Below the pieces are notes generated by a model. It ran no database searches. It was not told the origin of the DNA and saw only the letters and a list, made by a program, of their open reading frames with translations. From Botryllus schlosseri (Eukaryota), in contig CM119371.1 of the NCBI GenBank assembly GCA_051294905.1, positions 8,558,001 to 8,622,000 on the forward strand: DNA of 64,000 nt, given 5' to 3'. Position 1 is the first letter of the stretch, and every line of letters begins with the position of its first letter. Of this stretch, positions 14,323 to 62,010 are shown piece by piece. A program made the position numbers and the translations under genes.

Positions 14323-16041
14323 ATGACCAAAGAGGGGGAGCCTTCGAACAGGCGGCCCCCGGGCGACCGCCCACCTTGCCCACCCTAAAAGCCACCACGG
14401 ATGTTGACCAACCGACGAAGCACATGCTTGGTAATTCTCGATGACTAAATTTGCCTAATTCGAAGACTTTGGTCCCACTCATTCTTGGCCGATTTAAACG
14501 GACAAACGGCTTTGTCTGAATTAGGCCGAAAATCAATGGTTAGTTTTATTGTAATGCTCAAAGACAGATAATATTGTTTTGTCGCGTATTTAATGAATTG
14601 CAGCTGCTCTACTGCAGTAATTGGCACTGATCGCAAAAAAACGCACAATACTTATATGCTTATCTTTAGGTTAATTGCACTGTACAGTACTGTATTGAGA
14701 TACCAGGCGATTCAATAATTATCATACACTACTAGTTGCATTAGGCTACTCTGTAAAACAGACACATAGGTTTAAATAGTACACTAAGTACAGGGATTCT
14801 TCAAGGGCTGAAGGACTATTTTCACCTGATAAAAGTACCCTCGATAACAGTAGGAAATTAAAATCTAAAAGCAGATAACTGGCTGAAGACTATTCGACTA
14901 AACTTTTAAGAGTTCACTGTGTATTGTTAATGGATGGATCGAGTTTGTTTCATCCTAATAATTTATTTTTTGTTAAAACGAACGAAGGACTGTTTATTGT
15001 AGGCTACTGTAAGACTTGCGAACATGTGTCCCTTTTGCGCAGAGATATGTCCGATCAAACCGGAGTCTTTACGGAAAATTTTCACTTATATTCAGTTCCC
15101 AACCAATGTGTCCAAATTCATGGGATTGGATTGTCAGTTCATGGAGAACTTTAACACGACCATTGTTTCGGTCCTGGTCAAATTTACAATACCGCGTCGC
15201 GTAATCTGTGATATCTGAACGTTGGGTTAGGACCATACCATGATTTTCAAGCGTGGTAGACTCACTACGCCACTTTATCACTCCCATAATATCAATGGTA
15301 CTGCTCAAGTAGTTTGTCTACATAAAACTTCCCAAAATGTGATTGAATATGTGATCTGCAGTGGCAGCTAACTTCATTCGCAATTTGAGAACATTCGGTC
15401 AATATTTCTGCAAATAGTTATTCCGATCATATTAATAAAATGACCTTAAATTGTGAACTCAAAGATTCTAGAAAAGCTAAACCTTTCGGACCTAAAAAAT
15501 GCTCTGTTTATTTGCACCTTCCTTACATTAGGAAATCAAATTCGATCATCGGTGAGCCATTGGTTCTCATAAATGGAACCTCGGATAATCTTCATGACGA
15601 AAACTCCGATGACTGAAACGCTGAAGTTGTACTACCTGGGACATATCAGAGCTACATAATATAGCAATACACGTGTCGATGTGATAGTCGGTATGTGGTT
15701 CGCACATCCCGGCGTTTGCAGACAAAAAGTCGTCCTCATGTCCTACGGTTGATTAGAATAAATGATTATGTTTCTCCAACGCCATCATCGCATTCATTTG
15801 GCATATGCCAAAAATAATACGGCCTGGATATGGGCTGATATATCTCGAATTCTCCTTTGTCCATAGCTGCCTAAATGGATGGCTCACAAAAACCTTGTCC
15901 TGGCGATCTGAGCCGCACCTCATAAATGCCACCTGCATAAATAATTAAGCTTCCCAGGACGAAATGCAACTTCAAGTCGCACACAAGAAGTTCGAGGTCT
16001 GGTGCATTTCTGCCATTCCGAAATCTCGTGACTACATAAAA

Positions 16042-17933
16042 CAGGGGTGGGCAAACTTTTCAGCTCGCGGGCCGCATTCAACATCTGAATCCATTCGCGG
16101 GCCGCACTATCTAAAATTGGGATTATAAACCAAAACGCAATATTGATATTTGATTATATAGCGAGGACATGGGGATAATAGATGTGCTTATTTAAAACAA
16201 GACAAACTTTGCTTTGATGATATCGTGCACGCGTCAGAAACATATAGTGGCGAGATTGCATAAGCTGGCGGACCTCAATAACCAATTTGTCAAAACTATA
16301 GAGATGAAAGTCGGTTGGCCCGATTCTTAGAGCAGGATTGAAATTTAAATCTGTGAGCAGCGATCTGTTCATAGATTTACTAATTCCACTTTTGGTTCAG
16401 CTCCAGGACACACTTTGCTGACAGCATCATAACCATATTAGCTTCGAACACGATTCTACTATGTGTAGATAAAATATAAATAAACCCATTGTACGCATAC
16501 AGACAACGAATCTACCTAAGACACGCCTGAATGGAGTGGCCAATCTGAAATCCCACTGGTGATTCAAATTATGTTAGTATCCCACTGGTGATTCAAATTA
16601 TGTCAATCTCGTTGCAGCTATCCCGCTGTGATATTAAGTAGCCTATTTACCTTAGATCAGTGGTTCTCAAACTTTTGAAGACACGCCCCCCCCCCCCCCC
16701 CTTTATGATGGTGAAATATTTCGCGCACCCGAATCGTCATATCACAGAACGCAACCAGGATGCTAGCAAGCCTAGCGGGTAGTTTGATGACATCGAAGGT
16801 TATGACTGTGGATGGATGAGAGATTTTCAAATATGTAATTCAGACTAAATACAGAGCAATAGGCCTATCTACATGTCGCTAGATGTCCCGACAAATTACC
16901 CGACGTAAGGTTACGCATTCGTGCGTCACAGACGACGCAAATTTGTCGGGAAATCTGTCGGGTAAAATTGTCTCGCGAGGTTACCCGATAAAACAGCAGG
17001 GGAAATCGCCTATATCGGGTAACGGAAACGTTCGTTCTGAGATTTTAGTTTGGTTTAGGTATTTCCATGGCTGTATAATTGATCTTAAGTCTGTTTTATA
17101 ACATTATAAGTGACTTTTAGCACCTGTGGGTATAATTATATCGTCGAATGGCGATATGTCTAAAGTACCGTACGAAACGAACCTGATATGGAAGAGCCAA
17201 TTTAGCATCCGATACAAAACCACCCGCTTTGTCAAACATATTATAATTTAGGCTGTAAAAATGTTTGTTGTAGCATATTTGTGAACTTCAAGTGTTCACT
17301 AAGGTTATTCACGTTGAGAACCGGTCCTATTCGGAATATATACATGGCACATCAATAGGCTGCCTAAGGTTTCACAGTTCCAAACGACTCCTTTTGCAGT
17401 GATATGCGTTCTTATTCGCCTCTGACAACTATGCAATGGAAAACATCACATGGATGAATGTTAATAAACTAATTATAAACTCTCGAATGCAATGCAATGT
17501 GTAGTTTCGATAGATAAACCTGTGACATGTAAAACGGCGAATCTGTCGGGTAAGCTGTCACCATTCGGGGAGTCCCCCTACGTAATAATCACTGTCGGGT
17601 AAATATAATGGACATGTAGATAGCTCTAATAACTATGAATTGGATGTAAATAGCGTGGTGCGCGAAAAAAATTTTCGGTTGAGCTCAGCTTCGCGCCCCC
17701 CATCAGATGTTTTCACGCCCTCAAGGGAGGATCCAAACCACTTTGAGAACCACTGTCTTAGAATTATCATGGTGAAATATACTAAGAAAAAGTTAATCAA
17801 GTCCCTGCATTATTTCGATTTTTAGTACACATTTTAATAATATTTTTAAAAAGTTTCGTTAGACTCTCGCGGGCCGCACAGAACGGTGTTGCGGGCCGCA
17901 TGCGGCCCGCGGGCCTTAGTTTGCCCACCCCTG
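16042..17933. mobile_element. Buster/Charlie-type hAT non-autonomous element (family E, copy 1) with nested insertions
   Basis: TIR CAGGGGTGGGCAAACT; GCGGGCCGC subterminal motifs; degenerate TSD ACATAAAA/ATATAGAA; collinear with 31004-32183. Confidence 0.85.
16861..17627. mobile_element. PIF/Harbinger-type MITE (3-bp TSD)
   Basis: Imperfect TIR AG..CTATCTACATGTC; TSD AAT on both sides; absent from the paralogous position in copy 2 (~31890); TCGGGTAA subterminal motifs. Confidence 0.75.
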
Positions 17934-18773
17934 ATATAGAAGATGTTCGGTCACGAAATAACAACAACACACAACCAAGTAATTCATAAAAACGGACCAG
18001 CACCATGGACATAAAAGTATTGATTACGGGCCCTAAACTTTCAAAGACACCAATGAATCTGACCATGGGGCCAGTAGTTACAAATCCGACAGTAATATGT
18101 GCAATTCCAATTTCATTGACCGTTTTCAACCTTGTATTTTTTTCGTGCTATGCGCGAATAATCAGCATAACAGATTCACCCCCGAAAACAAGAACACCAT
18201 CGTAACGATAATGGTAGTCGCCCCCGCCCCCAGAACTTTGATTTATCAAACTATTGGGGAGCTTAAGACTAGCGTTTTGGAGGCGCTGACGAAGTTCTGT
18301 TACGGTCCCGTATTTTTTTTCCTGCCGTCTTTCAAACACCGTCTTAGAAAAATAGAATCTCTTGGGCATTTCACGGTAAAGTCCCGTGAAGAGTCGAGTC
18401 CCATTTTTGAGATACATCCCAACTATACCTATATAGGCTACCCCGTTGTGCATATTTTGCATATACCTCGCAAATCCGTCCCGTAACAATATCCTTAGGA
18501 ATTGGGAGAAAAAAAGACGCTGTCAGTAAAGTCTCTACTACCGATGCTTCCAGTTCTGGACATATCGACAATCCAGTATATTCCTGACTGTACGCGTCTT
18601 TGAAAAGCCGGATCTAAGCGGCTTAACCCACTTTACGTCCACACACAAGTCTTGCAAACTACCACACAATAGCCCACAATAGCCCATTTGTTATTAGCAC
18701 GCTTAGCGTGGCTTTATTACAAATGCAATGGTACAAGTACAATTGTCACATGTCTTGCTGCGCGCATCAGCGA
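17934..18773 (-). pseudogene. Degraded coding-like continuation (possible ectodomain) downstream of the TM exon
   Basis: ORFs 18148-18489 and 17797-18129 are in the same frame separated by one TAG; further stops and frameshifts lie upstream; truncated by hAT family E. Confidence 0.3.
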
Positions 18774-21700
18774 TCAGTCATTTTCTTGTGTCTCGTTGAG
18801 CTCGATCCAATTGAAGAACTTGGATCCGTTAATCCAAACCCCCACCAATTGAATGTGACGGGAACGCGGCGTCGTAAAAAATATTGCGAGCACTATCGTC
18901 GCAATGATAATCAGCACGATCACGCAGCATGCATACTTTTTACCGCATTTTTTAAGCCACATTATAGAACACATGCCATCATCATCTTCGGTGTCCCCGC
19001 CGATAGGATCACTCGTCGGCGTGTCGTTATCTAAAAGCAACATGTTGACAGTCCACAAATGTAGTAAGAGATCGAATAGAACACATTAAATTGTCTCTAC
19101 CTTGTCTCATATATATACAACGTAAATATATTTGTAAAATATTTGGATTTACGAGATTACCAACGTAACATAGCGATCCGATTTATTCGTCGGAACTGTC
19201 TTCCATGAAAGTTCGCTCTCGCCTTCATTGTTAGGGTTTAAACCAGGGTCGGATCTGAAGTCAGTAGTTTACATCCACTTTCTACAACTATAACAAATTC
19301 TGCAGTCATAAAAGAAGCTCACCACCTACATATACCTGCCAACCAGCAATGCCTCCGTAATATACCAAGCCTTATTCCCGGGAAGCAAAACAGAAGAACG
19401 ACAAATACATCCGTATTAGAATTAGACATCACGTGACGTGTCGTTTGCGCAGCGTGAAAATGCGCATCTGTGAACTAATTAGCGAATGGCAAGAATCAGC
19501 AATATTAAATTGTAAGCCGATCTATTTCTCGGCAACTCCCAGTCTAACGATAGTAATGGATGACATTGACCGAGAGGCTGTCCGTCTCAAAATAAAAGCT
19601 ATACTCACTGTAGCCACTGGTCGACGCAGCAGTATTGGTATCCGGCGAGTTTTCCTCTTTACTCCGGACAGGCTCTTCCAATAGAGTCGTAGAGTCGCTT
19701 GGGCACCCATTGAATCCGAAATCATCGCCGCCCGCGCTTACAGGAGGTAATGCTTCTGTAACGATAAACATTGATGCATATCATTTAATGTCTTGACAAG
19801 TCCAGCGATGATCAAATTTGCCAATGATGGTGCCACTATAATAGAGGTAATGATCACTTTCACCTGACTGCGAATGGATGAAGATATTCTTCACGAAACA
19901 GAAAACTACTTCAAGTAAAATACTGGACATTTCACTAGTTGTTAACACATTTGATTCGTAGATGAATCCTCAATCTCTGATGTTGGCAGCTTTCAAATAC
20001 TCAGCTAACGCAGAATAACAAAATTACCGACATGAACATTAGGGCACTTCAAAAATGACTTTTTTTTTCTCAAATCGTACTGGCTACTTGATAAAATTGT
20101 TAGGTTACCTAATTTGAGCCTACACACAAAATTTAGTTCAGTTTCAGCCAGTAACCGCTTTGCTACAGGAGAAGAAAGTTTCTACTTATATTATATAAAA
20201 ATAAATACTAAAAAAATTGAAAATTTTCTGTTCACCCCATGAAAGTGTTAGTCTGTCTATAGACACGATGCGCACCAAATTTGGTTCGATTCCAACTAGT
20301 GGAAGCGGAGTTATTGCCGTCGAAAAATTTGGATTTGAATAAAATAGTATTTACGGTGATCCATTCTTTGTTCATTTATTATAGTTGTGCTTACCGTAAA
20401 TACTATTTTATTCAAATCCAAATTTTGCGACGGCAATGACTCCGCTTCCACTGGTTGGAATTGAACCAAATTTGGTGAGCATCGTTTCTATACACAGCCT
20501 ATCACTTTCATGGGGTGAACAGAAAATTGTCAAATTTTTTGTTATTTATTTTTATATAATAAATAGAAACCTTCTTCTCCTGTGGCAATACGGCTAGTGG
20601 TTGGAATTGAACCAAATTTGGTGTGTAGGCTTAAATTAGGTAACCTAACAATTTTATCAAGTAGCCAGTACGAGTTGAGAAAAAAAAGTCATTTTTAAAG
20701 AGCCCTAATGAACATAGCTGCTATTTATAAAACATAATATTCCGCTTCCGTGATATTTTTCTGCATTTGGCTACACACAGATTTCATGACAATTACGCTC
20801 GTGGAGTGATGCAATTCCAAGTGAGGAATTGTTCCAGATGTTAGTTTGACTAAAAATTAAAACTTTCAAGTGGAGTAAAATTAATAAAAGATCCTAACTA
20901 ATTAAGCAAGTAATCGACGTCCGTAAGAACTACTTCAGTACTCCCAAAAGATTAGATTTTACTGACCAGCTCTGGTCACTTAAACATAGATAACTAGTGT
21001 CACAAGTCACACCATTAGCTGCCGGCACGACTTGTTCAGTTTCGTGCAACGTCAGAGATTCTTCGTCGCCAGCAGTTACAGGTGCCACAAGTTCCAGTGC
21101 GCCCTTCGAATCAGATTGATCACTCTCCAACTCACGCAAGATTTTTCCTGAAATATTATAATAGCTCTAGTAAACATAAAAACGTACAGTGACTGCAGCA
21201 ATACGGAAAATCACACACTGCAATCAACATCGGTCATTTAGAATATCTTAACCTGTTTTCTCATCCGGTGGAGTTGGGACGTTGTAGCGTACGTCCGTCT
21301 TTTGTGACCCAATACCACCATCCATTCCAAATTCGACGGACGGGCGAACGCCTTCCTCGTCGGTTTGATCTCGTATGCGGTCCCGCGATATGTTCACTGT
21401 AATGCAAGGATAGCAGCTATCACCGCATAGAATTTACTGTAATTTCGGGTGTGATCGGACGCGGGGTTTTCGTTTGAAAACGTACCGCGTCACTAATTAG
21501 GCTATTATGTATGGGCGGCGTCATTCGGACAGACGTAGGTTCTGTTGCAGGTAGATATATTTAGAAGGTTCAATGCAACCTGAATAATGAGTGAAAACAG
21601 TGGTAAAACACTTGTCGGGCTCATAAAGATTTCCTAGCAACTCACCAATCCTGGCTGAAAATTCTGGGTTTTTGTAGGGCCAATATGAACTCTAGATAAA

Positions 21701-22837
21701 TAAGAAATTTACCAAGAAGTTGGCATATAATCAGGATAATACGCTTCCGTTTACTCACATATACCAGTCTTTTAATAACGGAATGACTAATAACTCTCAG
21801 AAAACAAATGTTGGCGTGAACAGAAAGCTGATATAGCAAGCTAATGTATGTGTAAGTTAGCATCGTAACATTTCTTGACGTCATGTGTTCGCGTTTACAT
21901 ATATTCACACGTAGAAAAAGACTATTTGATCGGCAGTATACGCAAACTCATTTGATTCAACGTCTCCTTATCGCGTTTCAGATATGTTCATTGTTCACCG
22001 CTCCCATGAAGCTAGAGTTCATCAGCAAAGAGATGTTTTCGTGGTACTCAATTAGTCCAAAATATATTTGACCGAAAGTATTAAAATTTTCACCCCCTAT
22101 GGCCCCTTTCGAACGTTTTCGCCTCCCAATCATCCCTTCGTATTGTTAGCCAGCCTCGTCTATAAATCGTCCTCCTGGGGTCGATGTCGCCCACTTGAGG
22201 AGCAACTGTCATAGGTGTTGCCATTCGAGTGAGCTCGGAACCTACTATGTGTTCGAAGCATCGATAGCTGGCAGAGGTTTGTCAGAACTTTATGGGGATT
22301 GACAAGTGTTTGATAAATTTCAACGCTTTATAGCTGGTGATTGTAGTACGTTTCAACTGTGATAGTGAAAAACGAACTGCAACGCATTGGCAATAGCGAA
22401 TAAATGCGTATGGTGATCAAACTAGAAAATCCAAATGAAATAAGTGTATTCCATAAAGAGGACAGAGTCTTTGAAAAATCCCGGACAAGGACAAATTGAC
22501 TTTTTACAATAAGTGTAGTGTGTCGGATTGCTAACCCGTTCTTTTCTATAATGGAACCACAATATGTTCACCATTAGAAGGAACATCATGGAGCGGCAAA
22601 CAACTTACAGCTACCCGATAAAGGTATTCGCAATAATGTAATTCTAGATATTTTACGCTCATGATGTGATGGTTAAAGTCAAATTAATATATCATAATCG
22701 ATCTTACCGCCATCGCCACCACGAATGATGACGCGATCCTCATCGAAACATTGTTCCATATTCCCTAGCAGAGGCTCGGTAATAGATGGCTTCTCTGAGC
22801 TGATTGTCTTACCTTTAGCTCCTGATTGTGTATCCAT
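18774..22837 (-). CDS. Predicted multi-exon gene (possibly pseudogene) for a single-pass, type II-like membrane protein of unknown family
   Basis: GT-AG, phase-1/phase-1, stop-free exons at 21253-21396 (144 bp), 21013-21147 (135 bp) and 19609-19755 (147 bp), then an exon from 19030 with KKCGKKYACCVIVLIIIATIVLAIFF. Candidate first exon has ATG at 22837 and phase-1 GTAAGA donors (exon end 22813 or 22708). Confidence 0.5.
20040..20707. mobile_element. Foldback element: ~315-bp inverted arms around a ~35-bp spacer
   Basis: Near-perfect palindrome with TAGGGC...GCCCTA termini; perfect TSD ATGAACAT at 20032-20039 and 20708-20715. Confidence 0.92.
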
Positions 22838-23306
22838 TACGATCAATAAAATCAATAATATATTAAATCCAAGAGCGGAAAACTTAACCTGCGAAAATAA
22901 GTAGAGCTGACTTAAGTTCGTCGATTGGTACAGCAGCTGTGCCAACATGGTTTAAATGAATCCCCGATTCACATAACAGCAGAGGCGAGTGGTTGGATGC
23001 CGGATGGCAATTAATAGGAAATGGAGTAATCACCAGAATACAGACAACTACCCACTGATGACTTCTTGAGATAATTGTGGTAGCACGACAGCAGTGCGTA
23101 TAGCTGAAAGCAGTTAGACGTCCATTGAGTATAGTCTACTGCAGTGGTTCCCATCCTGCAGGCCTGAAAGATCGGAAGGGGGCGCGATGAAGCGGCAACT
23201 GAAAAAATATTTCGCGCCTTCCGCGATTTACCTCCAATTCACGCGTGTTTCTCTAATATATACACCGAATGTCATTATTTTTAATTCCCTCATCAACAGT
23301 TATAAC

Positions 23307-25069
23307 TAGTGATGGTGTGAACGTGAGGTTCGCGTTCGCGTTGTGTGTGTGAACCTCGGGAATTTAGAGGTTAGCGTTAACAATCGAACCTTGGTAGGTT
23401 CTGCACTGTGAACCTTTTTCATATATTACAATTTTAACTTCATTATAACATATTTGGTTTCAATGTATTGTATTTCAACTGCGGGCCACGCTATACATCG
23501 CGCTGACAGCATAAAAAGTCGACACTAATCGACCAAGCACCTTGAGAATCTCAAACATGTTTTTTGCTTTGTTACAAAAGTTTGCTCGAAATATCCAGCT
23601 TTCCGTGTGTGAATATTTAGCGACTCTCTGCTATGAGCATGACCAGCAATCACACAACATCAAGAGCGAAATAACCTACATGACGCTTATTTAACCAACG
23701 TACCAACGAAATTGATGTCGTTGTCTGATATACGGGGTCAATTTTGATTTCATATGTTTATTCTATCATAAAAGCCATATCCGTGCGATGTGGATGTTGG
23801 CTATACTGCTGTATAACTTGTTAAAGAGGTAATATCGGTAGCAAGTAGGGGAGATGTGGTACCGATGGATCACTGGGACCGAAAATACTTGAAAAATTCT
23901 CCATCATAATCCCATGATAACACTCCGTGAATTTGCCTGCAGTTACATGCTGACAGAATCTTTCCTCACATGCCAAAAAATTCGACCTGCGTGAGTTACG
24001 GGGCCTGTGACGAATGATTTACGTTTTAGGGGGTGTAAAGTAAATTTGGATCGACATTTGCATTTTTCTATATCACCTTTCAGACTAACAAACCCGCCAT
24101 CATTTTTGATGTGAAGTATAGGGCTTGTATCAGGGTATATAATGGCACATCTTTTTTTAATCAATACCATCCTCGAGTGGACTATTTTCAAGTCAATTAC
24201 AATATTTATGGGGTGGGGGACCTATGGTACCATGGCCAAATCAAGCAAAATAGATGGGCCAACTAATCACTTAACAACAAAACTCCCCTACACATATATA
24301 GGCTATAAATCATTGGTACCTACGGTGTTTTATCGCTATTACGAGTTATTTGAAAGTCAAAATGTCGATTTGAGGGTAATTTGTATGCGGCATTAATTTT
24401 GTAAGTTTAGGCGTAAATCAAAACATGATTTTATGTCAACATTTCAGTTGATATAATCTATTTTATTCCTGAAAGTCGCGACGAAACATTCTTCTTTGGC
24501 TTGCTGTAGAGTACACAACAAAACAAGTTAAAAATTTGAGTTTTTGAGCGTGTGTTTCATAGGTCCCATGGTCGTGTGCCGTTGGACCCACCGGGTGGGG
24601 ACCGATGACACGTTCGAGCAACGAATTTTAAACGTTTATAAATATTTTTTGAAAATACGGATATTCATGTAAATGTCGGCGATAGGTAGAGCTTGTATCG
24701 AAGTGTTGAGACAGCAAAAGATCTGCCATTCTCGGCTGAAGATTTGAGGGCCAGAGATCATTTTGCAATTTTTGATCCATCGGTACCACATCTCCCCTAC
24801 AGAATCCCGTTTTACACTCTGCTCAATATCAACGTATAGCAATACAATACGCAGACACCGAATACATTGTCTGGTCTGGCCTAGACCGTTAATGCATAAG
24901 CTTATATTCCCTTCCAAGTCCTTGTAGAAATTGTTGTCAAATCGACGGAAGATAATAATTTTATGGGATTACTATATCATTTGATTGTCCCAGTTATTAC
25001 ATTCGGCGATGTTTAAAATGTACATAACTAATATCCCTCCATATAGCATTTGTATACAGACATCAACTA
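23307..25069. mobile_element. Interspersed repeat with GTGAAC subterminal motifs (reverse copy at ~56850-57590), host of family D copy 2
   Basis: Long reverse-complement similarity between 23310-23845/24800-25030 and 56880-57585; ends approximate. Confidence 0.65.
23848..24797. mobile_element. Family D MITE copy 2 (opposite orientation)
   Basis: Same 25-bp TIR; GTA|...|TAC flanks; empty site visible in the paralog near 57075. Confidence 0.9.
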
Positions 25070-28877: not shown

Positions 28878-29389
28878 TAGGGCTGGGCACAATATTTCGA
28901 GTACTCGAATCTGAATCTAGTGTATATTATATTTTAATGATTCGAGTCGAGTAGTGAAAGGCGATCTTTTTGGAATGCTGAAATTATACGCTCCTCGTTA
29001 CTGAAGCTGAATTTAACACCGAGAATTATACTCATTTTCATTGTTGAAGCCTTGAAAGTTTGAATATCCGCATCGTAGTATACGAAAATGTAGTACAAAG
29101 CTACGAAGGTTACTGGAAACAGGTCATTTCCGAAGTCATGATCATCCCACAACATTGTCAAGAAGTGCAATGAAATAAGAATTGTCGAAAAATTACCCCA
29201 AGGCATCTTCAATGTGATGGATAACAGGTATTATATTCTTTGTGGTGGCATAAAGGGTACATATTTGAACTATGAAATGTTACATATTGTTATGACCTCA
29301 TAATGACCGATACTCGATTACTAGACTCGAAGCATAATACGTTATTTAGAAACGAATCACTCCGGTATAGTCGATGTTTCCCAGCCCTA
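28878..29389. mobile_element. hAT MITE family F copy 1
   Basis: TIR TAGGGCTGGG; TSD GTGAGGAA/GTGAGGAC; TCGAGTA/CTCGA motifs. Confidence 0.85.
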
Positions 29390-29483
29390 GTGAGGACGTA
29401 TAATAAACCTTTCTGAAAACGACTGTTGAATCTCTGTACCCTTTACATCTCCAGTATCAGAAGGTCTTTCACAGATACAGTAA

Positions 29484-33504: not shown

Positions 33505-33972
33505 CATCTGCGCATAGGCGCGTGAAATATCGCTAACGAATCTCTTGGCAGTCCCATACAAACTACGGAATTTTCAAAATGCGCCACAAGAACTATACTA
33601 GAATTACTCACTTTTTATAACTAACTAGATTCCCTTCCGAAGCCACAATAATAGGAATTGGTGAATTGGTAATTAGTAGGGCAAGTTTTTGTTGCACTGA
33701 AATCACGAGAAAGATGCATTTAATTTTCACAAAAGTTGCAGTAAAAAGTTACATTTATAATTTTTTTTGAAATAATAGGGTTTGAGATATTCGAAAGATT
33801 CCTCTGTATAACCTAGTTCCTGAAGACCAGTCAAATTTGTTACTTTATGGCCATTTAACGCACGGTCTGGCGAAACCGCCAAAAATTACATTTTCTGCGG
33901 CACATAGCAAGAAAATTACGCAATGCTGGAATAGCTTTCAATACAACATCCATTGTAGTAAAATATTTATTC

Positions 33973-34017
33973 AACTCGAAGACTTTTCGGGTGCCTCTTT
34001 TCAAGAGTTAACGGCAC
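33973..34017 (-). ncRNA. Minimal type I hammerhead ribozyme variant (U3-A8 core)
   Basis: Exact reverse complement of the motif at 34776-34820. Confidence 0.75.
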
Positions 34018-34199
34018 ACTAAAGGGATTTAAACAGAATGAAAAGCAAAACCAAAAAGGCGAAGTATGACGCGACAATCAGAAATTACATACCATGAAGT
34101 CCGCAATGTAACGATAGCAACAATAACAAACTTGAAGAGTACGATACTAGTAACATAGCATTTTTAAACCAAACAATAACAAACACGAATTAGAACGCA

Positions 34200-34727
34200 C
34201 TAATGGGAAATTTGTAAGATATACAGAAAATATTTTTGCCTACATAAAATAGGCTTGGTCAATTGGATGATTGTTGATTCTAGGGCTTTCCAATGAAACA
34301 AGGATCTGCCTCGCGCAATGACTGTAAACATTTGGTCATTATAGTTTTGAGCACAAGAAGGGTTCTCACTTAAATGTTGGCCAATTGCCGAAGCGTATGC
34401 TTGGTAATCGTCGTAACAGTCGGTTTTGGCGGCTGATTTGCATTGTCGTGCGAACTTCGTACGGTCATTTGCGCAAGTTTTTGAGCGAATCAATTTGGGA
34501 ATGTGTTGCGTTATCCGTTCAAACAATCTTTGTGATGTACGTCCCACATACCTACTATCACAGTGGCACTTAAATTCGTAGACGACGTTACTTGCATTTA
34601 AAGCAGGAAGTACATCCTTTCGGAAGTTTGGCAGAAGTGGTTTGGTTGGATACACCACATGCGCATTTACACTATAATAACAACGGTGCACGGCCGATTT
34701 GATCAACTTTTTAAACCGATTCGACAC
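34200..34727 (-). pseudogene. GIY-YIG endonuclease domain of a Penelope-like element (truncated ORF)
   Basis: SNVVYEFKCHCDSRYVGRTSQRLFERITQH...SAIGQHL...LESTIIQLTKPILCRQ, i.e. the VY..C.C..YVG.T.R..R..H...H...E signature. Confidence 0.92.
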
Positions 34728-34775
34728 ATTGCCTAGCCATTGCCTAGCTTTTCATTCTGTTTAAATCCCTTTAGT

Positions 34776-34820
34776 GTGCCGTTAACTCTTGAAAAGAGGC
34801 ACCCGAAAAGTCTTCGAGTT
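34776..34820 (+). ncRNA. Minimal type I hammerhead ribozyme variant (U3-A8 core)
   Basis: GTGCC-gtt-AACTC-TTGAAAA-G-AGGCACC-C-GAAA-AGTCT-TC^GAGTT: stem I AACTC/GAGTT, pseudoknot GTGCC/GGCAC, quasi-palindromic helix III AAGTCTT. Confidence 0.75.
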
Positions 34821-34940
34821 GAATAAATATTTTACTACAGTGGATGTTGTATTGAAAGCTATCTTCAAGTTCTGTACCACAAACCAACTGTTCAATGCCG
34901 GAATTATTTCCAAAAAAAAGCCAAATAACATAGCTATAAC

Positions 34941-35489
34941 TAGGGCTGGGCAAAACCAAGTACCTGAGTGATTCGATTCTGAATCACGTAAAACGCTTCG
35001 AGTCGAGTCGAGTATTCCAGTATCACTCATTATGACGTCACAACAGAATATAATATGTCAAAGTTCAAATATGTACCTTTTATGCCGCCACAAAGAATAT
35101 AATGACTGTTATCTAGGCTTACCATATTTCGGAAACGAAAAAAGAGGACACTTTTTCAGAAATTTCAGACATGCAAAACTGGAGAAGAATTCTCGAAAAC
35201 CGGTAAATTTCTCCCACTTCATGATCGGTTGACTAAAAAAAAAAGGTCATCACTTCCGCTCAGAGCTCAAAATCACGTTTTTCACTCCACATTGCTAGGT
35301 GGATGGTTTCAAAGCTTCCTTAGTGGAAAATGGTATCAAAACTATAATTCTCGATAGTAAATTAACTTTTAGTTGCGAGGAGCGCATAATTTCAGTACTG
35401 GAAGAACTCATTTTTTACTACTCGACTCGAATCATCACAATTAATACTCGATTCAGATTCGAGTACTTGAATCATTGTGCCCAGCCCTA
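34941..35489. mobile_element. hAT MITE family F copy 2
   Basis: TIR TAGGGCTGGGCA; perfect TSD GCTATAAC. Confidence 0.9.
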
Positions 35490-37244
35490 GCTATAACCCC
35501 CTCTCCATAAAATAAGTCGAATAACACACCCCAAACCCCTTAGGTCTGCAAACGTGACCCAAGGCATTACAAAAAAATTTACTCTCGGCGACTGTAACAA
35601 AAGCAATAGCCTGAAAAAGGTGACTCAGTGAAAATGTAATTTTCCGCGGTCTCGACTGTCCCTCGTTAAATGGGAAACAATATTTCAAATTTAAACGACA
35701 GAATTAATGAAGCGAACTATTAAGATTTTGTTCGGGCAAGGTCGTGCTTGGCAGGGGTAGTTGGACTTCTTGTTTGAAAGCCATTCTGTCATAGATAACA
35801 GTGAGATGCAGCTAACCCATCATATCGCTATTTGTTATGCAAATCAAAGAGAGTAGAACCTTTTGATAAAAGTTGCAGTAAAAATTGGCATGACAAATAG
35901 AGAAAAGTTGCAAAAAGTTACACTATATTATAGTCCCTATGAACAGCTTGAAACATCATAGTTGGCCTACATAGATTTTGAGTATCTAGGAAGGTGTCGG
36001 CAGCTGTAAAAAAAGTTGCAAAAGTTTCAAAAACTAGAAATTAGCAAATAAATATTGGATATAAAATAGGCATTTCAAAATAGAGAGGATTCCAAACAGA
36101 AGGGGTTTCGATCACGTAAACCGGCACAATGGCTACGCCCCTGATGGTAATAATAACTCTGATCCAGCAATGGCTGCGAGAACATCACAATCAGAGAACC
36201 GGTATCACGAAAGACGCAAAACGACGATACGAGTGTACTTGTTGCTCGGCAACCATTTCTCCATGCGCAACTGAAACTATATCTAGAATTACCTAGTTTT
36301 CACAATCAGTAACTAGAACTAGAACCAAAATTATTCAAAAAAGCAGTAGTTAGTTCACCAGCAAACTAGCTAAATTGGTAGTTCGTAAAAGTATTTCTCC
36401 TGATCGAGCTACAGTATAACAAGAACGATTATTGCCTGCGTTTTCCTACTCTGATCATGGCCAAAAAAGCAGTTGCAACATAGATTAAGATGTTCGATGT
36501 CGGCTATGTCCAGAAGTCTAGCTAGACTCTCGCAAATATACTGAACACGGCAAGGGCGACATCCTTTTCATGACAAGGAATTTTCCACAGTCGTGAATTA
36601 TGTCCATAAAGCGGCGACTGAAAGCTTTGCAACTGCGGCGCGCTGCTAACAATGACACCCCGCCAAGATGATTTCTTTGCAAAGCGCTTGATGCGAATAC
36701 ACCGGAATCTCAATAGTATTGCTATAGATGGTATTCCGATTCTCTCGACGCAATGTAGTTTATTTCACTACATGCATGTACATTGTACAATGTGCATTTT
36801 GCATGCTGTGACGATGCGGTGCATCGTTATACAACGACTGACCCCTTATCAAACAATCGCAGTGGGCAACTTGATTATCGCCTACCTGCAACAATAGAAT
36901 CATTTGCATGATAAAAGCCTGACGGCGTGAAGACTTGTGTCATTCTGGGAAAAGATATCCGTTTTCATTGTATTTTTCCTAATTTAATGGAGACGCAATA
37001 GTTAGTGGCTGAACAAAAAACATTGATCGGCGGTTCTTAACTGGGTTTCGCCAAAACTCCAGCGGCTAATTAAGCCAGTCTTGGGGTTTCGCTGGAGGCC
37101 GAGACACAACCTTAACTCATGCATATAATTCGTGATAACACGCCAGCCCGCGGAAAGTTTCGGCGAGTCTACAACAGCGGTTCCCAACCTTTTTGTTTTC
37201 ATTCCCAACTTCAGATTTTTTTCCGAGCATTCATTCCACACTAT

Positions 37245-38528: not shown

Positions 38529-38856
38529 CAGCCGAAAGCCGCACATTGTTGAATCGTCTATCGCACGCTTTCCATCGTGTCTAGAAGTACAATGATCCGA
38601 TCGGTAATGGGTGCTTCGTGTTCAATAGTCGTAGCGGCTACAGAAAAGCTGTCGAACCAGCTTTTTTCGGAGTGTGTAACTCATTCTGTCGTTCATCATA
38701 TGGATGAATCATTGGAGGTAGGACATAAATCGCATAGAATGGATTATGCGTTATCTACTGAAGTTGTGGGTAGTGTCTTAACGTGGTTACACATTTACAG
38801 GACAGGCCTTTATACTTGCTGTTGCTGGAAGACAACGTTTTGGACGTCGCGTCGGC

Positions 38857-39978
38857 ATGGATTTGGCACGAATGATCGCTATGGGTGACACCGAAGTTAT
38901 ACAGCAAACTGATTTTCTCGATAAAGTCTTCAATTTCGATGACCACTCACGGTTGTCCATGACGGATATTGAAGTCGCGGACGCGCTATTTTCTCTTGAT
39001 GAGGATCGTAATGATGTATTCGATCAATTGCAGTCATGTGAATCGTCCGAAAGGGACATTATGACCGAGGAATCTGAATACAACCACAGACGACAAGCAG
39101 GCGTCATCAGCATTGGTCAATGGCGTGAAATGAGCTTTGATCCGGCTGCTTCACGTAACCGCGAGAAGATGCTAACATGGACCGGCTTTGCGTTCCCGAG
39201 TCCTCAGTCTCTGACACTGCCTTACTCGTGTAAGGTATTTCTTGGTGGGATTCCACCGCGCATAACCACGGGCGAACTCCACGAAAATTTCCGTCGTTTC
39301 GAGTTGGCACGAGTAGAGTGGCCCACCGTGAAGATCTCAAGAACGAAATCGCAAATTGGTTACGTTTATCTTTTGTTCAAGACGGCACGCGGCGTTAGCA
39401 AGCTGCTGCAGAATTGCGTATACGACAAACGGAAAGGTGGCTGGTATTTTCAATTGACTGGAGAAAGATTCGGTCGCTGGCAGAGTCAAGTTATGCCTTG
39501 GTCTGTTGACGACAGCCACCACATTCGCGTTACGTCTGTTAGTCGTGGCCACGAGGATGAGTCCGTTTTTGTGGGTGGATTGCACGGAATGATTACAGCT
39601 GAAAGGCTTTCGCATATTATGGACACGCTATTCGGTGGCGTCATTTATGCTGTTCTTGACGTCGACCGTTACAATTATCCAATAGGTAGTGGACGCGTCG
39701 TTTTCAGTTGCCGAAACAGCTTTCGAAAAGCCGTTGAGGCCGCTTTTGTCGGAGTACGAACTGATCGCTATCTGAAAATAATTCAGATTGACCCGTACTT
39801 GACTGTAGTGGAAAATTGTAACGTGTGCCGTTCCACCGCTTCTAACGTTAATTGCTTTAAATATACATCGAAATGCATTACATATTTATGTACTAAATGC
39901 GAGAAGAAACATCATTGCAAGGCCGTGCCGAAATACGAGATGATGTCAGTTGTGAAATGTCTTTCTCCTTCATCATAA
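38857..39978 (+). CDS. CPEB1-like: Cytoplasmic polyadenylation element-binding protein, CPEB1/Orb-like (2 RRMs plus divergent ZZ-type zinc finger), intronless, 373 aa
   Basis: LTWTG...YSCKVFLGGIP, GYVYLLF, QVMPW, VFVGGLHGM...LFGGVIYA..D.D.YNYPIGSGRVVF, AAFV...IQIDPYL, then CxxC..C..C..CxxC...H. These are collinear with the CPEB1 C-terminal half. Confidence 0.95.
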   Translation: MDLARMIAMGDTEVIQQTDFLDKVFNFDDHSRLSMTDIEVADALFSLDEDRNDVFDQLQSCESSERDIMTEESEYNHRRQAGVISIGQWREMSFDPAASRNREKMLTWTGFAFPSPQSLTLPYSCKVFLGGIPPRITTGELHENFRRFELARVEWPTVKISRTKSQIGYVYLLFKTARGVSKLLQNCVYDKRKGGWYFQLTGERFGRWQSQVMPWSVDDSHHIRVTSVSRGHEDESVFVGGLHGMITAERLSHIMDTLFGGVIYAVLDVDRYNYPIGSGRVVFSCRNSFRKAVEAAFVGVRTDRYLKIIQIDPYLTVVENCNVCRSTASNVNCFKYTSKCITYLCTKCEKKHHCKAVPKYEMMSVVKCLSPSS

Positions 39979-42005: not shown

Positions 42006-43687
42006 TATAGTACCGCCTTACACTAAATTTTACATGTCTTTCGTAAACCACGAGGAAAGAAACAACACGAAAACAATACGGATATCGTTAATGCACGATA
42101 AAATGCATCAATTTATAATCAGGGTGATCCTCTCTAACAAAATAGGGAAACGCATGAGCATTCTGGAATTATTAAAGAGCCGCAATCAAAGTCGGAAAGA
42201 GCTTCAGTTCGCCCACCCCTGTACTATATAATCAGTAGGGGAAGTTTTTGTTGCACTAAAATAGCGAGAAAGTTGCAATTAATTTTATCAAAAGTTGCAG
42301 TTATCAGCTTTGTTAAATTATTAGGGCATGAGATACTCGAAAGGCTCCGTTGTATAATCTAATTGCTGCAGAGCCGTCAAATCTGCTACTTTGCAATTTC
42401 ACGGACTGTCTGGCGGGACTGGCAGAAACTACATTTTTACCGGTGGACAGCAATAAAATTACGCAATGCGAGATTAATTTTACCCCAAAAGCCAAACATC
42501 ATAGAAACAGCCCCATCCCCCGTAAGATAAGTCAAATAACACCTACCAAACCCCTTTGGGTATGCAAACTTGACCCACGGCATTGCAGGAAAACTCACTC
42601 TTAGCGACCCTGAAAAAGGCGACCTAGTAAAAATGTAATATTTGCGGTCTCGCCCGGCGTTCGTGAAATGGGAATTGAAAAACAGCGTTATCTTATTCAC
42701 GTTGATAGTCGATAATGTTTCCTCGCAAACGTATGAAAACCGAAGGATAACAAGTTATTTCGTGGCAATCTTTCGCAGCTAGGCAAACTCGGATTCATTC
42801 AGTGACGCATAAACGCATAACACAACGAAAACAAAGACTAGAAAAAAAGTTTGAAGTCACACTAATTTCATGTGATTTGATAAGCAAGTAGTTAGGGATT
42901 ACGGCAAACTGCGAACGTGGGTGACATTAGCATGTAAGACGGGTAACTCTCTGCGAGCCGCTCAAAATCCCGTCTCCAGTCGTATGTTGCTCGCCCCTGA
43001 ATAAAAACCAACCTATAGGTAGAACTGTTTTGCGTCTTGAGCGATCATTATTACACCGTTCAACAAAATGAAGAAAAAAAATCGGCAAAACATCTAGCAG
43101 TCTTTCAAGATTGCTGGTTATGCATATCACATTGACTTTGCCATATTGACTCTAGTTTAGGAGATACGTATATCCCTAAAAACAAATTACTTTATTTACC
43201 GCTTAATATTGCACATGATAGAAAGTAAATAGTAGACTTTGAATGTCTACGATGCGGATCAACTGATAATTGTCTAAAAATAACTCTCATGTCGTCATTA
43301 GTACTTCAATCAGCATGAAAATGACTTGATGCGAAATCATTGTTTGTCAAAAGAGCAGTCGGCCAAGCCTAAAAATATTATGCTTTCTAACAACGGAAAT
43401 GTATTATTCCTGTACCGGTTGGCCATTCTATCAAGAAAAAAGAGAAATATAAAGCTATCAAATTTGTCCGTGAGAAGCTTTACTACAATAGCCTACTCAT
43501 ATGCCACCCATGTCTTTTATCTCGTAAATCAGTGGTTCCCAACCTTTTTCCACCCACGTACCATTTTGAGGTTTTATGCATTGCTCGCGTACCACCTATA
43601 TAAGTTACGCGCGTTTCCACTATTTATGACGTCTACTCACGTATTTGACCTATGCGAGGTGTATTGACAAATTCTATTAAACTAGAC

Positions 43688-52377: not shown

Positions 52378-54060
52378 ACAATTCATGACAATGTGAGCGC
52401 AATTAAGAACTACTATAAATCAAATTGCAAAGAGGCTGACATGATGACAGTTGATGCGAGTAAAGCGTTTGACAAAGTAAATCAACAAATGTTGATGAAA
52501 ATCCTGTCCAAACTATACCGCTAACAAGAGAGACTGTTAACACCATCGCAGCTATATATGCAAACCCAACTGCCGCAATTGAAATCAACGGGCTAGAAAT
52601 AGCAAAACTACGATGCACAAGGAGAATCAGAGAAGGATGCCCCCTAAGCATGACACTATATGCAATAAGTGCCGACTCATTAGCTCAGAGGCTAATTGGA
52701 AACCCAGATATTGACGGACTAAGAATTGGGGGAATCACCAAGAAAATAGACCAATTTGCAGACGATGTCAAATTGTACATAGGGTCTATACGCGCAATAA
52801 CAGCAGCGCTCGACGAATATGACATATACCTCAAAACAACTGGTCAAGATATCAACCTTGAGAAAACAGAAATTCTCCCCCTCAACAACAAGTCGAGAGT
52901 AATCCTCCAAAATTCCCGACATGCTGTACTAATGAAACCAACAATCAAGATCCTGGGAATCTACAATGGCGACTATGGCGTTGAAAAGAACCATGATGCA
53001 TTGATAAAGAAGCTGGAAGCAAGTGCAAGGAACATCAAAGCAAAAAAACTGACATTTATTGGAAAAATTCAGGCAATACAAGCATACATGCTATCCAAGA
53101 TAACCTACATTTATTACAATCTACAGATAACTGAAAAACAATCAACGCAGATGGAAAGGATCCTATACAACATCCTATGGAGTCCTGAAAACCTGGAACA
53201 AAAAGCAAGGAACACACTGATCAGGCCAAAAGAATATGGAGAAATAAGAATGCCTCACATAACGACCACGATCAACACCAGAAATGCAAAGCGCCTACAG
53301 GAACTGGCAAAACTCGAAACACCCGAGGCCATTCACAACCTGGGTACCAAGGTGAGGTCAATAAATAAATCACTCTACAACAACCTCTTCCCTCACAGAC
53401 AAATGCCAACACACAAATGGACCGAGAAGAAACGCATATACGACTCATTCGAAAACAAAGAGACGCCAACCTACGAAATGACTCAAAAAGAGATATATGC
53501 TTCACTAATACAAAGAAAAACGAAACACGGTGATCAAGAAGACACTTACTTGAAAGAAATATGGCTCTACAACGACACCATCAAGCACAATATAACCAAT
53601 CACCAAAGAGTAATATCATATCGTATTACCAATGAAGCATATTTTACAGGCGCAAGGAAGAATGAAGCGAAATGGACGAGGAGGAAAGATGCAAAACTAA
53701 AAAACAACTGCAAATTCTGCAAAAGCAGCCTTGAAACTCTATATCATATCTTCACGACATGCCCAAGTTACAAAAAATTTATTCTATCTTGTCAGATCCG
53801 ACCTCGAGGACTCCCTGCAAACCGACATCAACGCTTCTACGGAAGAAATCCTCAGAAACACCTACGAGGGACCGCCCAAACTCATCGCGATTACAACCTT
53901 CATGAAAATGAAATGCGAAATATGGGAGTGGAAAAAAACGCTTGATATTTAAAATGAATAACTCGAAGATATCAATTCAAAAACCGACGAGATCAGAAGA
54001 AAATTGCACAAACCACTAAGAAGACAATGTTATAGACGGTGAAACGCGAAGAAGACCTGA
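52378..54060 (+). mobile_element. 5'-truncated, frameshifted L1/Tx1-like LINE ORF2 (RT plus zinc finger); ends approximate
   Basis: IHDNV...VDASKAFDKV, [frameshift ~52515] IREGCPLS, QFADD, INLEKT, IKILGI, CKFC...ETLYHIFTTC, [frameshift ~53785] KCEIW; strongly A-rich coding strand. Confidence 0.9.
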
Positions 54061-54135
54061 TGAACAATTGAAATCGACCACGCACGAGCAAACGCAAATA
54101 CCGAAATACATAGACAATATGCAGGACGCGATATC

Positions 54136-55445
54136 CTTGACTTGTAAAGGTAGAACTGGGTTCACATAATGTATTAGGGCCCTACCAATTTTCGCGCAAT
54201 ATCCTTCAGCTGATAGAGATATGTAGGCTACGTCTGTAGTCTACATTGGATATGTCAGATTATTATGATATCGATTGCCTTAGCCCACTTGTTGCGTAGG
54301 GCTCCAGAGATGAGTGGCGCTGTTGATACTTTCTATAGGCGCTTCGCTAAAAGCGAGCACGCACCAGCCTTTCCTTGACTTGTAAGGGTAGAACTGGGTC
54401 CACAGAATGTATTTGGTCCCTACCAATTTTCGCGCAATATCCTTCAGCTGATAGAGATATTTCTAGTAAGAAAAATATACTTTTCAAGTAATAAGATTCA
54501 CTCAGATTCACTCAAGACAGCAAATTTAGATAATGTACATATATCATTTTGCAGTAATACAACTAGGCCTACAGTGTTGAGTTTTCACTCCAGTCCCCAT
54601 GAGCACGACGTCGGTGACCTTGACACCAAATTCCGAGAAGGCGAAAAAGTGCAAACTCTGTTGGGCCGAGTGGACAATGGACATTCAGTTATTCACAGAT
54701 GCGAAAATAAATAATGCAAATCCGTTTTACGTAAGTTACATTAGGAATATAAATACAGGCTACAGAATGAATATAATTCAAATATCTGTGATACCACTGT
54801 ATTACTTTTGACGCAAAAGGTCCCCGGCATTCAAAAAAACTGTTTGGTGATTGAAAAATGCTAAACCAAATTCCAACGTCAACATTTATAGTGATATCAG
54901 ATATATTCCAGTGAAAAACAAAGGTATGAATTTGGTGGTAACATTTTGGAATCATTTGGCAGGTATGGCCCGCAAGATTTCTATAGTAACGGATTGAATC
55001 CGGACAGCGATACCAGTTTAATTCGACACTCCTGCTGTTAAACTTTATTCAACAATCAACATTTACCTGCTGAATTCGCGGACCAAGTCCTACCCATACG
55101 GATCAAAGAAAAGCTTGTTATGTATGCTCATGCTCATGCTCAATGCTCCTTGCTCATACTTAACCATAAAAGCAACTATAGAAAGTATCGACACCCGCCA
55201 TCAACAGCGCGACATGTCTCTGGAGCCCGACGCAACAAGTGGGCTAAGGCAATCGATATGATAATAATCTGACATATCCAATGTAGACTACAGACGTAGC
55301 CTACATATCTCTATCAGCTGAAGGATATTGCGCGAAAATTGGAAGGGCCCTAATACATTCTGTGGACCCAGTTCTACCCTTACAGGTCAAGGAAAGGCTG
55401 GTGTGTGCTCGCTTGTACCGAAACGCATAGAAAAAGTCTTAACAG
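54136..55445. repeat. ~238-bp unit present as 1.4 tandem copies (54136-54460) and an inverted copy (~55180-55445)
   Basis: Shared AATTTTCGCGCAATATCCTTCAGCTGATAGAGATAT and flanks in both orientations. Confidence 0.8.
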
Positions 55446-55858: not shown

Positions 55859-56092
55859 AGTTTGTTACTGTTGCCATTGGTACAATGCGAATTTCATGGT
55901 TTGTGATTTTGATTGTTGCGTCATACTTTGCCTTTTGGTTTTGCTTTTAAATCTGTTTAAATCCCTTTAGTGTGCCGATAACTCTTGAAAAGAGGCACCC
56001 GAAAAGTCTTCGAGTTTAATAAATATACTGCTACAATGGATGTTGTATTGAAAGCTATATTCAAGTTCTGTACCACGAACCAGCTATTTAAT
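55859..56092 (+). mobile_element. Solo Penelope pseudo-LTR, same family as 33933-34892 (ends approximate)
   Basis: Collinear with the reverse complement of 33933-34135 and with 34747-34892. Confidence 0.85.
55972..56016 (+). ncRNA. Minimal hammerhead ribozyme variant (U3-A8 core), third copy
   Basis: 44/45 identical to 34776-34820. The single change (gtt to gat) lies in the linker between the pseudoknot strand and stem I. Confidence 0.75.
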
Positions 56093-61244: not shown

Positions 61245-62010
61245 CCAAAGATGTTTATATCCATCTACCTTGGATTGGTCCCATTTCCACCCGTTTTGAA
61301 AAACAATTGATTGTCGCGGTCGGGAAGTGTTATGACGCAGTCAAAACCAATGTGCTTTTTACGACTACACAACTGCCACCTTCGACACGCAAAGACGTGC
61401 TCCCCGCACTTCAACAAAGTAATGTAGTGAACAAATATAAGTGCCACTGTGATTGTAGCTATACGTGGGAAGAACGTCAAAGCGTCTGCGGGAACGCATA
61501 AACCAACATGTCCCCAGATTTATCAGAACACGTGCTTTGCGCTCGGGAAAAGCTCACTCTTAACTCATTCGCTTAATCTTGATTGATTGATTAATTGATC
61601 TTGCCGTCGGCAAACATCTGTTGGATAATCCAATTTGTGCGAACAATTATCGAGACGACAGATTTCGCGTCGTTGAGGGGGGCCCTTCACACTTCCATTT
61701 GTGTGCCTTGGAGTCGACTTTTATCAAAATACACCAGCCAAAACTCTGTCTACAAAAGGAGTTCGTGTACCAACTAAAAATAGCACATTGAACGCTCTCT
61801 CATTCAAAACTTCATGCTGGTGACGTCACATTTTGTGATACGATTGTTGATATACAATGTTCCTTCACATTCTCTACTAGTTGCTGACAATTATCCCTGA
61901 CGAGTGTCAGCCGAAAATATTCGGGTTCATTTCAATATGAATATAATATTCAATTGTATATCGAAGTTCTGTACCTCCAAGAAGCTCTTAAAATTATACT
62001 TTCAACATTA
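61245..62010 (+). mobile_element. Second, diverged Penelope-like fragment (GIY-YIG 3' end plus pLTR), frameshifted
   Basis: LPWIG...RKDVLPALQQSNVV.KYKCHCDCS/YVGRTSKRLRERINQH...KHLLDNP...LESTFIKIHQPKLCLQK. Confidence 0.88.
61883..61926 (+). ncRNA. Minimal type I hammerhead ribozyme, canonical core
   Basis: GCTGACA-att-ATCC-CTGACGA-G-TGTCAGC-C-GAAA-ATAT-TC^GGGT: 7-bp pseudoknot GCTGACA/TGTCAGC, palindromic helix III AATATT. Confidence 0.85.

Follow-up and report, generated by a model that had tools for sequence, protein, structure and literature searches.

The window considered here, a 64,000-nt stretch of the Botryllus schlosseri genome, carries a short hammerhead-type RNA motif in three copies, each associated with Penelope-like element (PLE) sequence. 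A second, diverged PLE in the same window carries a motif of the same architecture. The features are as follows.

33931..33953, minus strand: first 7-8 codons of the next PLE ORF (ATG at 33953-33951), in the 46-nt stretch past the predicted cut that ends copy 1
33973..34017, minus strand: copy 1 of the hammerhead-type motif, with the same sequence as copy 2; cut predicted between 33978 and 33977; ~185 nt 3' of the stop codon of the endonuclease ORF
34203..34751, minus strand: last 183 codons of a PLE ORF (GIY-YIG endonuclease part), 5'-truncated where it joins the inverted arm; 57 longer homologues
34776..34820, plus strand: hammerhead-type motif, copy 2, inside the inverted, 5'-truncated arm that starts at 34747; found by covariance model R1 at 32.4 bits, E 2.2e-5
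34840..34893, plus strand: PLE ORF start after copy 2, VDVVLKAIFKFCTTNQLF, found by tblastn, 25 nt 3' of the predicted cut, start codon mutated to GTG
55972..56016, plus strand: hammerhead-type motif, copy 3; predicted cut after 56011; R1 31.5 bits, E 3.7e-5
56036..56089, plus strand: PLE ORF start after copy 3, MDVVLKAIFKFCTTNQLF, ATG intact; 78% identity to residues 1-18 of homologue P0003
61253..61788, plus strand: broken endonuclease part of a second PLE (stops and a frameshift), 41-43% protein identity to the ORF at 34203-34751
61883..61926, plus strand: motif of the same architecture with a canonical core, in the second, diverged PLE; R1 64 bits, E 1.5e-13
61937, plus strand: ATG, start of the second-PLE ORF

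Judging from its homologues, the ORF at 34203-34751 is the C-terminal endonuclease part of a PLE. Pfam gave no domain at E ≤ 0.01 for the 183-aa fragment, and its identity came from the 57 longer homologues, found at E ≤ 0.001 and ranging from 94% to 40% identity, for which the precomputed domains are RVT_1 and GIY-YIG. For example, a domain scan of homologue P0012 gave RVT_1 at 1.2e-8 and GIY-YIG at 3.9e-6. Both domains are seen in homologues, and the endonuclease part alone survives in this 5'-truncated copy. Of 20 pattern matches to the endonuclease ORF in a scan of viral contigs, none was confirmed. The copy is part of a composite insertion (~33927-35504), which self-comparison places within a repeat that has a paralogue at 42229-42674. 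The left arm of the insertion runs from 34751 to 33931 on the minus strand, and the inverted arm runs from 34747 on the plus strand. An inverted, 5'-truncated arrangement is typical of PLEs (PMC8557442). In contigs from a public sequencing run, loose ends pile up at 33931, and there are other genomic copies that extend beyond it, like copies 2 and 3. The end of copy 1, 46 nt past the predicted cut and inside the first codons of the ORF, resembles the “tail” of PLE insertions.

The ORF starts downstream of the motif were located by tblastn with the N-termini of three full-length homologues (P0003, P0006 and P0036). The peptide encoded at 56036 matches the first 18 residues of full-length homologues, as does the same peptide at 34840, which begins with GTG. 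Since the downstream peptide is the PLE N-terminus, the motif is flanked by the stop codon of one unit and by the next unit's start codon. The distance from the predicted cut to the N-terminus is 25 nt in the family of copies 1-3 (hereafter, the first window family), 15 nt in the second window family, and 3-4 nt in relatives from metagenomes. The initial annotation had assigned the motif to a Penelope pLTR, and its position, ~185 nt after the stop codon of the GIY-YIG ORF and 25 nt before a start codon, bears this out.

Several other features of the window lie in or near PLE sequence. Beyond PLE codon 18, copies 2 and 3 both run into a common sequence (34897-35504 and 58081-58523) that has no PLE protein match and of which a third occurrence lies at 28878-29391, minus strand; in copy 3, an insert of ~2 kb separates 56092 from 58081. 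A third PLE endonuclease fragment, at 15404-15796 on the plus strand (up to 50% identity to P0006 residues 637-773), is truncated before the end of the ORF, with no hammerhead motif close by. Inverted repeats of 156-194 nt (54134-54460 and 55200-55460; 88-94% complementary) immediately upstream of copy 3 hold internal direct repeats and probably belong to another mobile element. Elsewhere, the open frame at 38782-39978 (plus strand; RRM_7 at 8.9e-20, RRM_1 and CEBP_ZZ) has the domains of a CPEB-like RNA-binding protein exon, a sign of an animal genome, and the 490-aa open frame at 52473-53945 (plus strand; RVT_1 and zf-RVT) encodes a non-LTR-type reverse transcriptase unrelated to the PLE. Two pairs of direct repeats that are 99-100% identical, 45402-45488/50732-50818 and 46431-46497/50815-50881 (5330 and 4384 nt apart), suggest a recent duplication or long terminal repeats.

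The motif itself is 45 nt long. In copy 2, on the plus strand, it divides as follows.

34776-80: X strand, GUGCC
34784-88 and 34816-20: stem I, AACUC/GAGUU
34789-95: core, UUGAAAA
34796: G10.1
34797-803: 7-nt loop, AGGCACC
34804: C11.1
34805-07: GAA
34808-14: helix III, AAGUCUU
34815: C17, with the predicted cut between 34815 and 34816

Searching both strands of the window with the 45-mer finds copies 1 and 2 with 0 mismatches and copy 3 with a single T>A mismatch, which falls in the unpaired nucleotides joining X to stem I; this makes 3 matches compared with 0 in 100 shuffles. The three copies, their strands and their hammerhead parse, all proposed earlier, thus hold base by base. The order of the blocks is that of a type I hammerhead: 5' strand of stem I, core, GAAA, cleavage site, and 3' strand of stem I. 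Judged against the hammerhead core, U4, G5, A6, A9, G12, A13, A14, A15.1, U16.1 and C17 are all present, and C3/G8 is replaced by U3/A8. Stem I has 5 bp, or 7 bp with one G.U in copies 1 and 2. A9 is followed directly by G10.1, and no hairpin can form within the 7 nt that separate G10.1 from C11.1; instead, the upstream GUGCC is complementary to the GGCAC of this loop. Helix III, AAGUCUU, is only near-palindromic, and can form 3+3 bp around a central U.U, or 2 bp when folded on itself.

How specific is this arrangement? A generic type I descriptor was written that requires a CUGANGA or UUGANAA core, G10.1 and C11.1, GAAA, an A...U followed by H, and a stem I adjacent to the cut. It matches only four places on both strands of the window: the three copies and the canonical-core motif at 61893-61926. 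A shuffled window contains 0.04-0.08 matches; among 300 dinucleotide shuffles, at least one match occurred in 11 when stem I had to be at least 5 bp, in 22 at a minimum of 4 bp, and in 64 at a minimum of 3 bp.

The motif of the second PLE lies ~95 nt past its endonuclease stop and reads GCUGACA-auu-AUCC-CUGACGA-G-UGUCAGC-C-GAA-AAUAUU-C-GGGU. Its parts, on the plus strand, are as follows.

61883-89: X strand, GCUGACA
61893-96 and 61923-26: stem I
61897-903: core, CUGACGA
61904: G
61905-11: loop, UGUCAGC
61912: C
61913-15: GAA
61916-21: AAUAUU
61922: C17

Compared with the first window family, the core is canonical and the 7-nt loop is different, and the loop is again fully complementary to the upstream segment. 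The same architecture also occurs in PLE loci from metagenomes. Scanning metagenome contigs with the endonuclease alignment gave 305 stretches, of which 221 encode relatives, and 80 loci were kept. A relaxed scan in which positions 3 and 8 were free found 62 motifs, 58 of them in the metagenome loci and four in the window. To avoid descriptor bias, R1 was built from 11 sequences with the first window family excluded, and was searched against the window and the 80 loci (319,621 nt). It gave 91 hits at E ≤ 1, 88 of them at E ≤ 1e-4. The three window copies were recovered at 31.5-32.4 bits (E 2.2e-5 to 3.7e-5) and the second-PLE motif, as 61867-61942, at 64 bits. Helix III in relatives is AAGCUU or AAUAUU, both of which are palindromes too short to fold on themselves, as fits a dimer; only the first window family has a helix III of 7 nt, which can fold back on itself. 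The relatives would fit the earlier statement that PLE hammerheads with a palindromic helix III act as dimers; AAGUCUU is not itself a perfect palindrome.

The metagenome loci show some variations of their own. The main PLE family has a UUGAAGA core (U3.G8; e.g., L008:1135-1210), with a small subgroup carrying CUGAAGA and a single copy carrying UUGAAAA. A CUGACGA further upstream in this family was considered as the core and rejected by inspection, having no helix II and no stem I adjacent to the cut. Ten loci (L020, L051, L055, L064-L066, L070, L023, L024 and L003) carry a pair of motif copies in opposite orientation, with a spacing of some hundreds to some thousands of nucleotides, in the same arrangement as window copies 1 and 2. 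In three others (L006:748-831, L058:1836-1923 and L047:533-631), the motif is broken at the same point, directly past A9. Two of these continue with an identical foreign sequence, TGTACTTTCCACG..., and in L006 the remainder of the motif resumes ~430 nt later with a short motif piece repeated. To judge from these sequences, the break looks like an insertion into the motif.

These relatives allow positions 3 and 8 to be compared across homologues. Removing six rows from the 91 R1 hits, namely the three broken motifs and three with E > 0.05 (L004:1863-1944, L014:532-581 and window:25702-25770), leaves 85 motifs and 56 unique rows. The commonest state is the wobble, U.G (71/85 motifs; 45/56 unique rows), followed by C-G (8/85; 6/56), U-A (5/85; 4/56) and U/U (1/85; 1/56). 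C/A is found in 0/85 motifs and 0/56 unique rows, an absence that is not significant by itself. U-A is carried by the first window family, L001 and a single copy in L019; C-G is carried by the second window family, L011 and the subgroup of the main metagenome family. Thus, positions 3 and 8 are pairable in 84/85 homologues, drawn from few independent lineages. C3-G8, which the initial annotation had named as the counterpart state, does occur in homologous motifs of related PLEs (8/85). The same annotation had read U3-A8 as a compensatory double change. Pairability agrees with this reading, but U3.G8 is the commonest state in the lineage, and the change looks stepwise, through the wobble, and not like a clean double change. 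The base at H17 is never G in the 85 motifs, and U4, G5, A6, A9, G10.1, C11.1, G12, A13, A14 and A15.1 are invariant across lineages with unalignable flanks.

The helices were examined in an alignment (A6) of 88 rows, 59 of them distinct, with 14 pairs. In A6, 95.8% of cells are paired, and 8/14 pairs change on both sides, a number reached by 0/500 shuffles; these figures come from four to five independent lineages with one family supplying most rows, from an alignment fitted to stem I, and from a structure read from the same sequences. Controls in which the partner strand was slid gave 20-56% pairing. The pseudoknot helix (columns 17-22 with 41-46) is 96.6% paired, with double changes in 5/6 pairs, and stem I has double changes in 3/6 pairs across relatives. 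The pseudoknot exists in four versions: GUGCC/GGCAC, GCUGACA/UGUCAGC, UCUGAC/GUCAGA and UGACGC/GCGUCA. The proposed pairing of the upstream GUGCC with loop II has therefore been kept through compensatory changes.

Existing models do not detect the motif. Rfam gave no hammerhead match at gathering score or at E ≤ 10, either in the whole window or in short stretches, including one of 201 nt. The canonical-core relatives also have no significant Rfam hammerhead match; RAGATH-1-hammerhead comes closest, with 14.6 bits where the cut-off is 56.3. Because relatives with a canonical core are missed too, it is the architecture that hides the motif, and not the UUGAAAA core, to which the failure of searches had been attributed. 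Nearest-neighbor folding is unremarkable (z -0.68, with a range of -1.27 to +0.20 that is not informative). The minimum-energy fold uses the GUGCC/GGCAC pairing, at -7.0 kcal/mol, which can coexist with stem I as a pseudoknot; taken by itself, the nested hammerhead structure has +5.2 kcal/mol. A competing CUCUU/AAGAG hairpin (-3.2 kcal/mol) would sequester U3, U4, A8, A9 and G10.1, but was rejected, not being conserved in relatives. The self-duplex of AAGUCUU is weak, at -1.5 kcal/mol. In the pseudoknotted form, a linker of 0-1 nt must span a helix of 5-7 bp, which should be feasible given general pseudoknot geometry.

How well is the motif conserved between copies, and how abundant is it? Copies 1 and 3 are identical at 44/45 positions of the motif, 28/30 of the adjacent upstream 30 nt, 37/41 of the 41 nt downstream, and 71/84 of the far upstream sequence. 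An earlier claim that the motif is more conserved than the upstream pLTR flank thus applies to the far upstream sequence and does not extend to the adjacent flanks. Since these are about as conserved as the motif, the motif is part of a longer conserved block. In contigs from one public sequencing run, depth is ~150,000-190,000 over 33943-34047 and ~8,000-25,000 over the ORF. The motif region is thus 8-10 times deeper than the ORF, and motif-carrying fragments far outnumber coding parts. None of the 40 variant places listed falls inside the motif, which is not proof of constraint, as 96 further places exist.

Given the R1 hits, the pairing of positions 3 and 8, the covariation of the pseudoknot and the presence of the same architecture in related PLEs, the motif is, on sequence grounds, a genuine PLE hammerhead-type motif. 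We consider it likely that it is a hammerhead-type ribozyme module of the PLE, situated in the pLTR, with a pseudoknot in place of helix II, a cut at C17, and a probable need for a dimer or a cofactor. How might such a module act? U3-A8 is an isosteric replacement of C3/G8, with the other canonical core positions all present. In place of a hairpin helix II, a single G10.1:C11.1 pair closes a 7-nt loop, whose pairing partner lies 3-5 nt upstream of stem I. Covariation among relatives shows this pairing; in three dimensions, the pseudoknot would stand in for helix II. In read-through or tandem PLE transcripts, the RNA would cut itself after C17 (C34815). The upstream unit would then keep the ribozyme at its 3' end, and the downstream RNA would start 25 nt before the start codon. 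With only AAGUCUU as helix III, cleavage would probably be slow and would probably need pairing between two copies, or a protein or chaperone, in line with reports on other PLE hammerheads.

One alternative is that the motif is a descendant of a hammerhead that no longer cleaves, and is kept, or is simply still to decay, as a structured RNA that serves the element in some other way. For example, it might be a recognition site for the PLE protein near the start of reverse transcription, or a 5' leader that affects translation of the ORF 3-25 nt downstream. The commonest state among relatives, U3.G8 (71/85), is a non-canonical core, and the motif is inside a longer conserved block. The copies are also nearly identical, which recent amplification alone could explain. 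Published work points in the same direction: PLE hammerheads cleave poorly in vitro (PMC4209133), cleavage mutants of the anole PLE still insert, with no RNA-seq reads reported to end at the cut (Frangieh et al. 2024, PMC11167929), and Naiad PLEs are described as thriving without canonical hammerheads (PMC8557442). However, the catalytic positions other than 3, 7 and 8 are invariant across lineages whose flanks are beyond alignment, positions 3 and 8 can pair in 84 of the 85 motifs, and H17 is never G. These constraints are specific to hammerhead chemistry and would not be expected of a generic protein-binding hairpin, and we regard loss of cleavage as rather unlikely. Another explanation is chance, with an ordinary hairpin in a repeat (GUGCC...GGCAC with the inner CUCUU/AAGAG stem) over-fitted to the hammerhead scheme. 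The minimum-energy fold is indeed the GUGCC/GGCAC hairpin, Rfam has no match, and stem II is only 1 bp. Nevertheless, a match to the descriptor appears in only 11 of 300 shuffled windows, the motif is exactly where PLEs carry hammerheads, R1 finds it despite having been built from other PLEs, and the inner stem is not conserved in relatives. Chance resemblance is already disfavored, and we consider it very improbable.

A different question is whether cleavage, if it occurs, needs a second copy. The pseudoknot could act as a tertiary contact between stem I and stem II, and the extra U of AAGUCUU could allow a 2-bp helix III with a 3-nt loop, in which case the motif would cleave as a monomer. 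Pseudoknotted hammerheads are fast monomers, and one of them has a 1-bp stem II (Perreault et al. 2011, PMC3088659). The first window family is alone in having a self-closing helix III of 7 nt, and the two copies of the local insertion, being on opposite strands, cannot pair on one transcript. Against this, a 2-bp A-U helix III would be very unstable, and the 6-nt palindromes of the relatives, AAGCUU and AAUAUU, cannot fold back and fit dimer pairing. Monomer cleavage thus seems unlikely, and the reading that we prefer remains a PLE hammerhead module that probably needs a partner copy or a cofactor.

What are the wider implications of a PLE hammerhead of this kind? A Penelope hammerhead with U3-A8 matters little by itself, since it repeats published work. 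Natural U3-A8 covariation was reported in 2011, together with a citation of earlier in vitro activity (Perreault et al. 2011, PMC3088659). Hammerheads have since been described in all PLE pLTRs, with ~1,300 U3-A8 motifs in S. mansoni PLEs, and the supplementary alignment contains a UUGAAAA core in S. mansoni(4) and UUGAAGA in Saccoglossus(1) (Cervera & De la Pena 2014, PMC4209133). Hence, U3-A8 is not the new or hidden variant that it was first taken for; reading it as a compensated core is reasonable, and is already in print. The architecture could matter more: current hammerhead models miss a whole PLE lineage, even with a canonical core. It is possible, although we are doubtful, that this lineage rebuilt its hammerhead by moving the 5' strand of helix II upstream of stem I, in a form that would still work with C-G, U.G or U-A at positions 3 and 8. 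Such forms escape Rfam and published hairpin-based descriptors, so PLE clades or genomes scored as having no canonical hammerheads may hide them. In addition, the 3/8 pair occurs naturally as C-G, U.G and U-A within a single scaffold, which would permit a clean biochemical comparison. Lastly, with the predicted cut 3-25 nt ahead of the start codon, cleavage would set where the coding RNA begins at its 5' end, which bears on the purpose of PLE hammerheads.

How does the motif compare with known hammerheads? By title or abstract, a literature search found no pseudoknotted PLE hammerhead, and the one paper that came up for U3-A8 in hammerheads was Cervera & De la Pena 2014; a pairwise-mutagenesis preprint has nothing on positions 3 and 8. 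A one-pair stem II combined with a pseudoknot to the 5' leader looks unusual next to the sequences of published PLE hammerheads. A 2017 work by Lunse, Weinberg and Breaker is reportedly on PLE hammerhead dimers, and may already describe a pseudoknotted architecture with a 1-bp stem II. PLE hammerheads sit in pLTRs and are believed to work in dimeric form (PMC4209133, PMC6765202), usually without tertiary interactions (2017 review). The closest likeness is to the minimal PLE hammerheads, including the U3-A8 variant of S. mansoni Cercyon, which share the type I order, the pLTR location, a stem I of 4-5 bp, G10.1-C11.1, a tiny palindromic helix III (only near-palindromic in copies 1-3), high copy number, and numerous copies that are solo or inverted (Cervera & De la Pena 2014, PMC4209133). 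In the examined portion of the alignment, however, these have a hairpin helix II of 3-8 bp and mostly an extra base after A9; in S. mansoni, helix II is 7-8 bp, with an unpaired base between A9 and G10.1 (PMC4209133). The window motif, by contrast, has a helix II of 1 bp, with A9 followed by no extra base, and its 7-nt loop pairs with the 5' leader.

The hammerhead of the Anolis Poseidon PLE is likewise placed at the very start of the PLE ORF, and insertions end in a short “tail” past the ribozyme (Frangieh et al. 2024, PMC11167929). The C3/G8 pair matters there: single mutants are dead, and the swap gives partial rescue (PMC11167929). Cleavage was dispensable for insertion in vitro (PMC11167929). 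The Anolis element differs in having a start codon upstream of the cut, a canonical core and a hairpin stem II (PMC11167929), whereas in the window motifs and their metagenome relatives the start codon is 3-25 nt downstream of the predicted cut. Pseudoknots as such are common, occurring in ~40% of hammerheads (Perreault et al. 2011, PMC3088659). A validated natural hammerhead combines a 1-bp stem II with a 6-bp pseudoknot, and Watson-Crick pseudoknots of 4-6 bp tie stem I to stem II, such that a 1-bp stem II is tolerated (PMC3088659). That example is a type II hammerhead from a metagenome, in which a 3' tail after stem II pairs with loop I (PMC3088659); the window motif is type I, from an animal retrotransposon, with base pairs between its closed loop II and the 5' tail of stem I. 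Helices that can be drawn only with pseudoknots are also a property of the non-circularly permuted hammerheads (Eckert & Weinberg 2023, PMC10085705). Those types reorder the CUGAnGA, GAAA and cleavage-site blocks (PMC10085705), whereas the window motif keeps the classic type I order, with only the 5' strand of helix II displaced.
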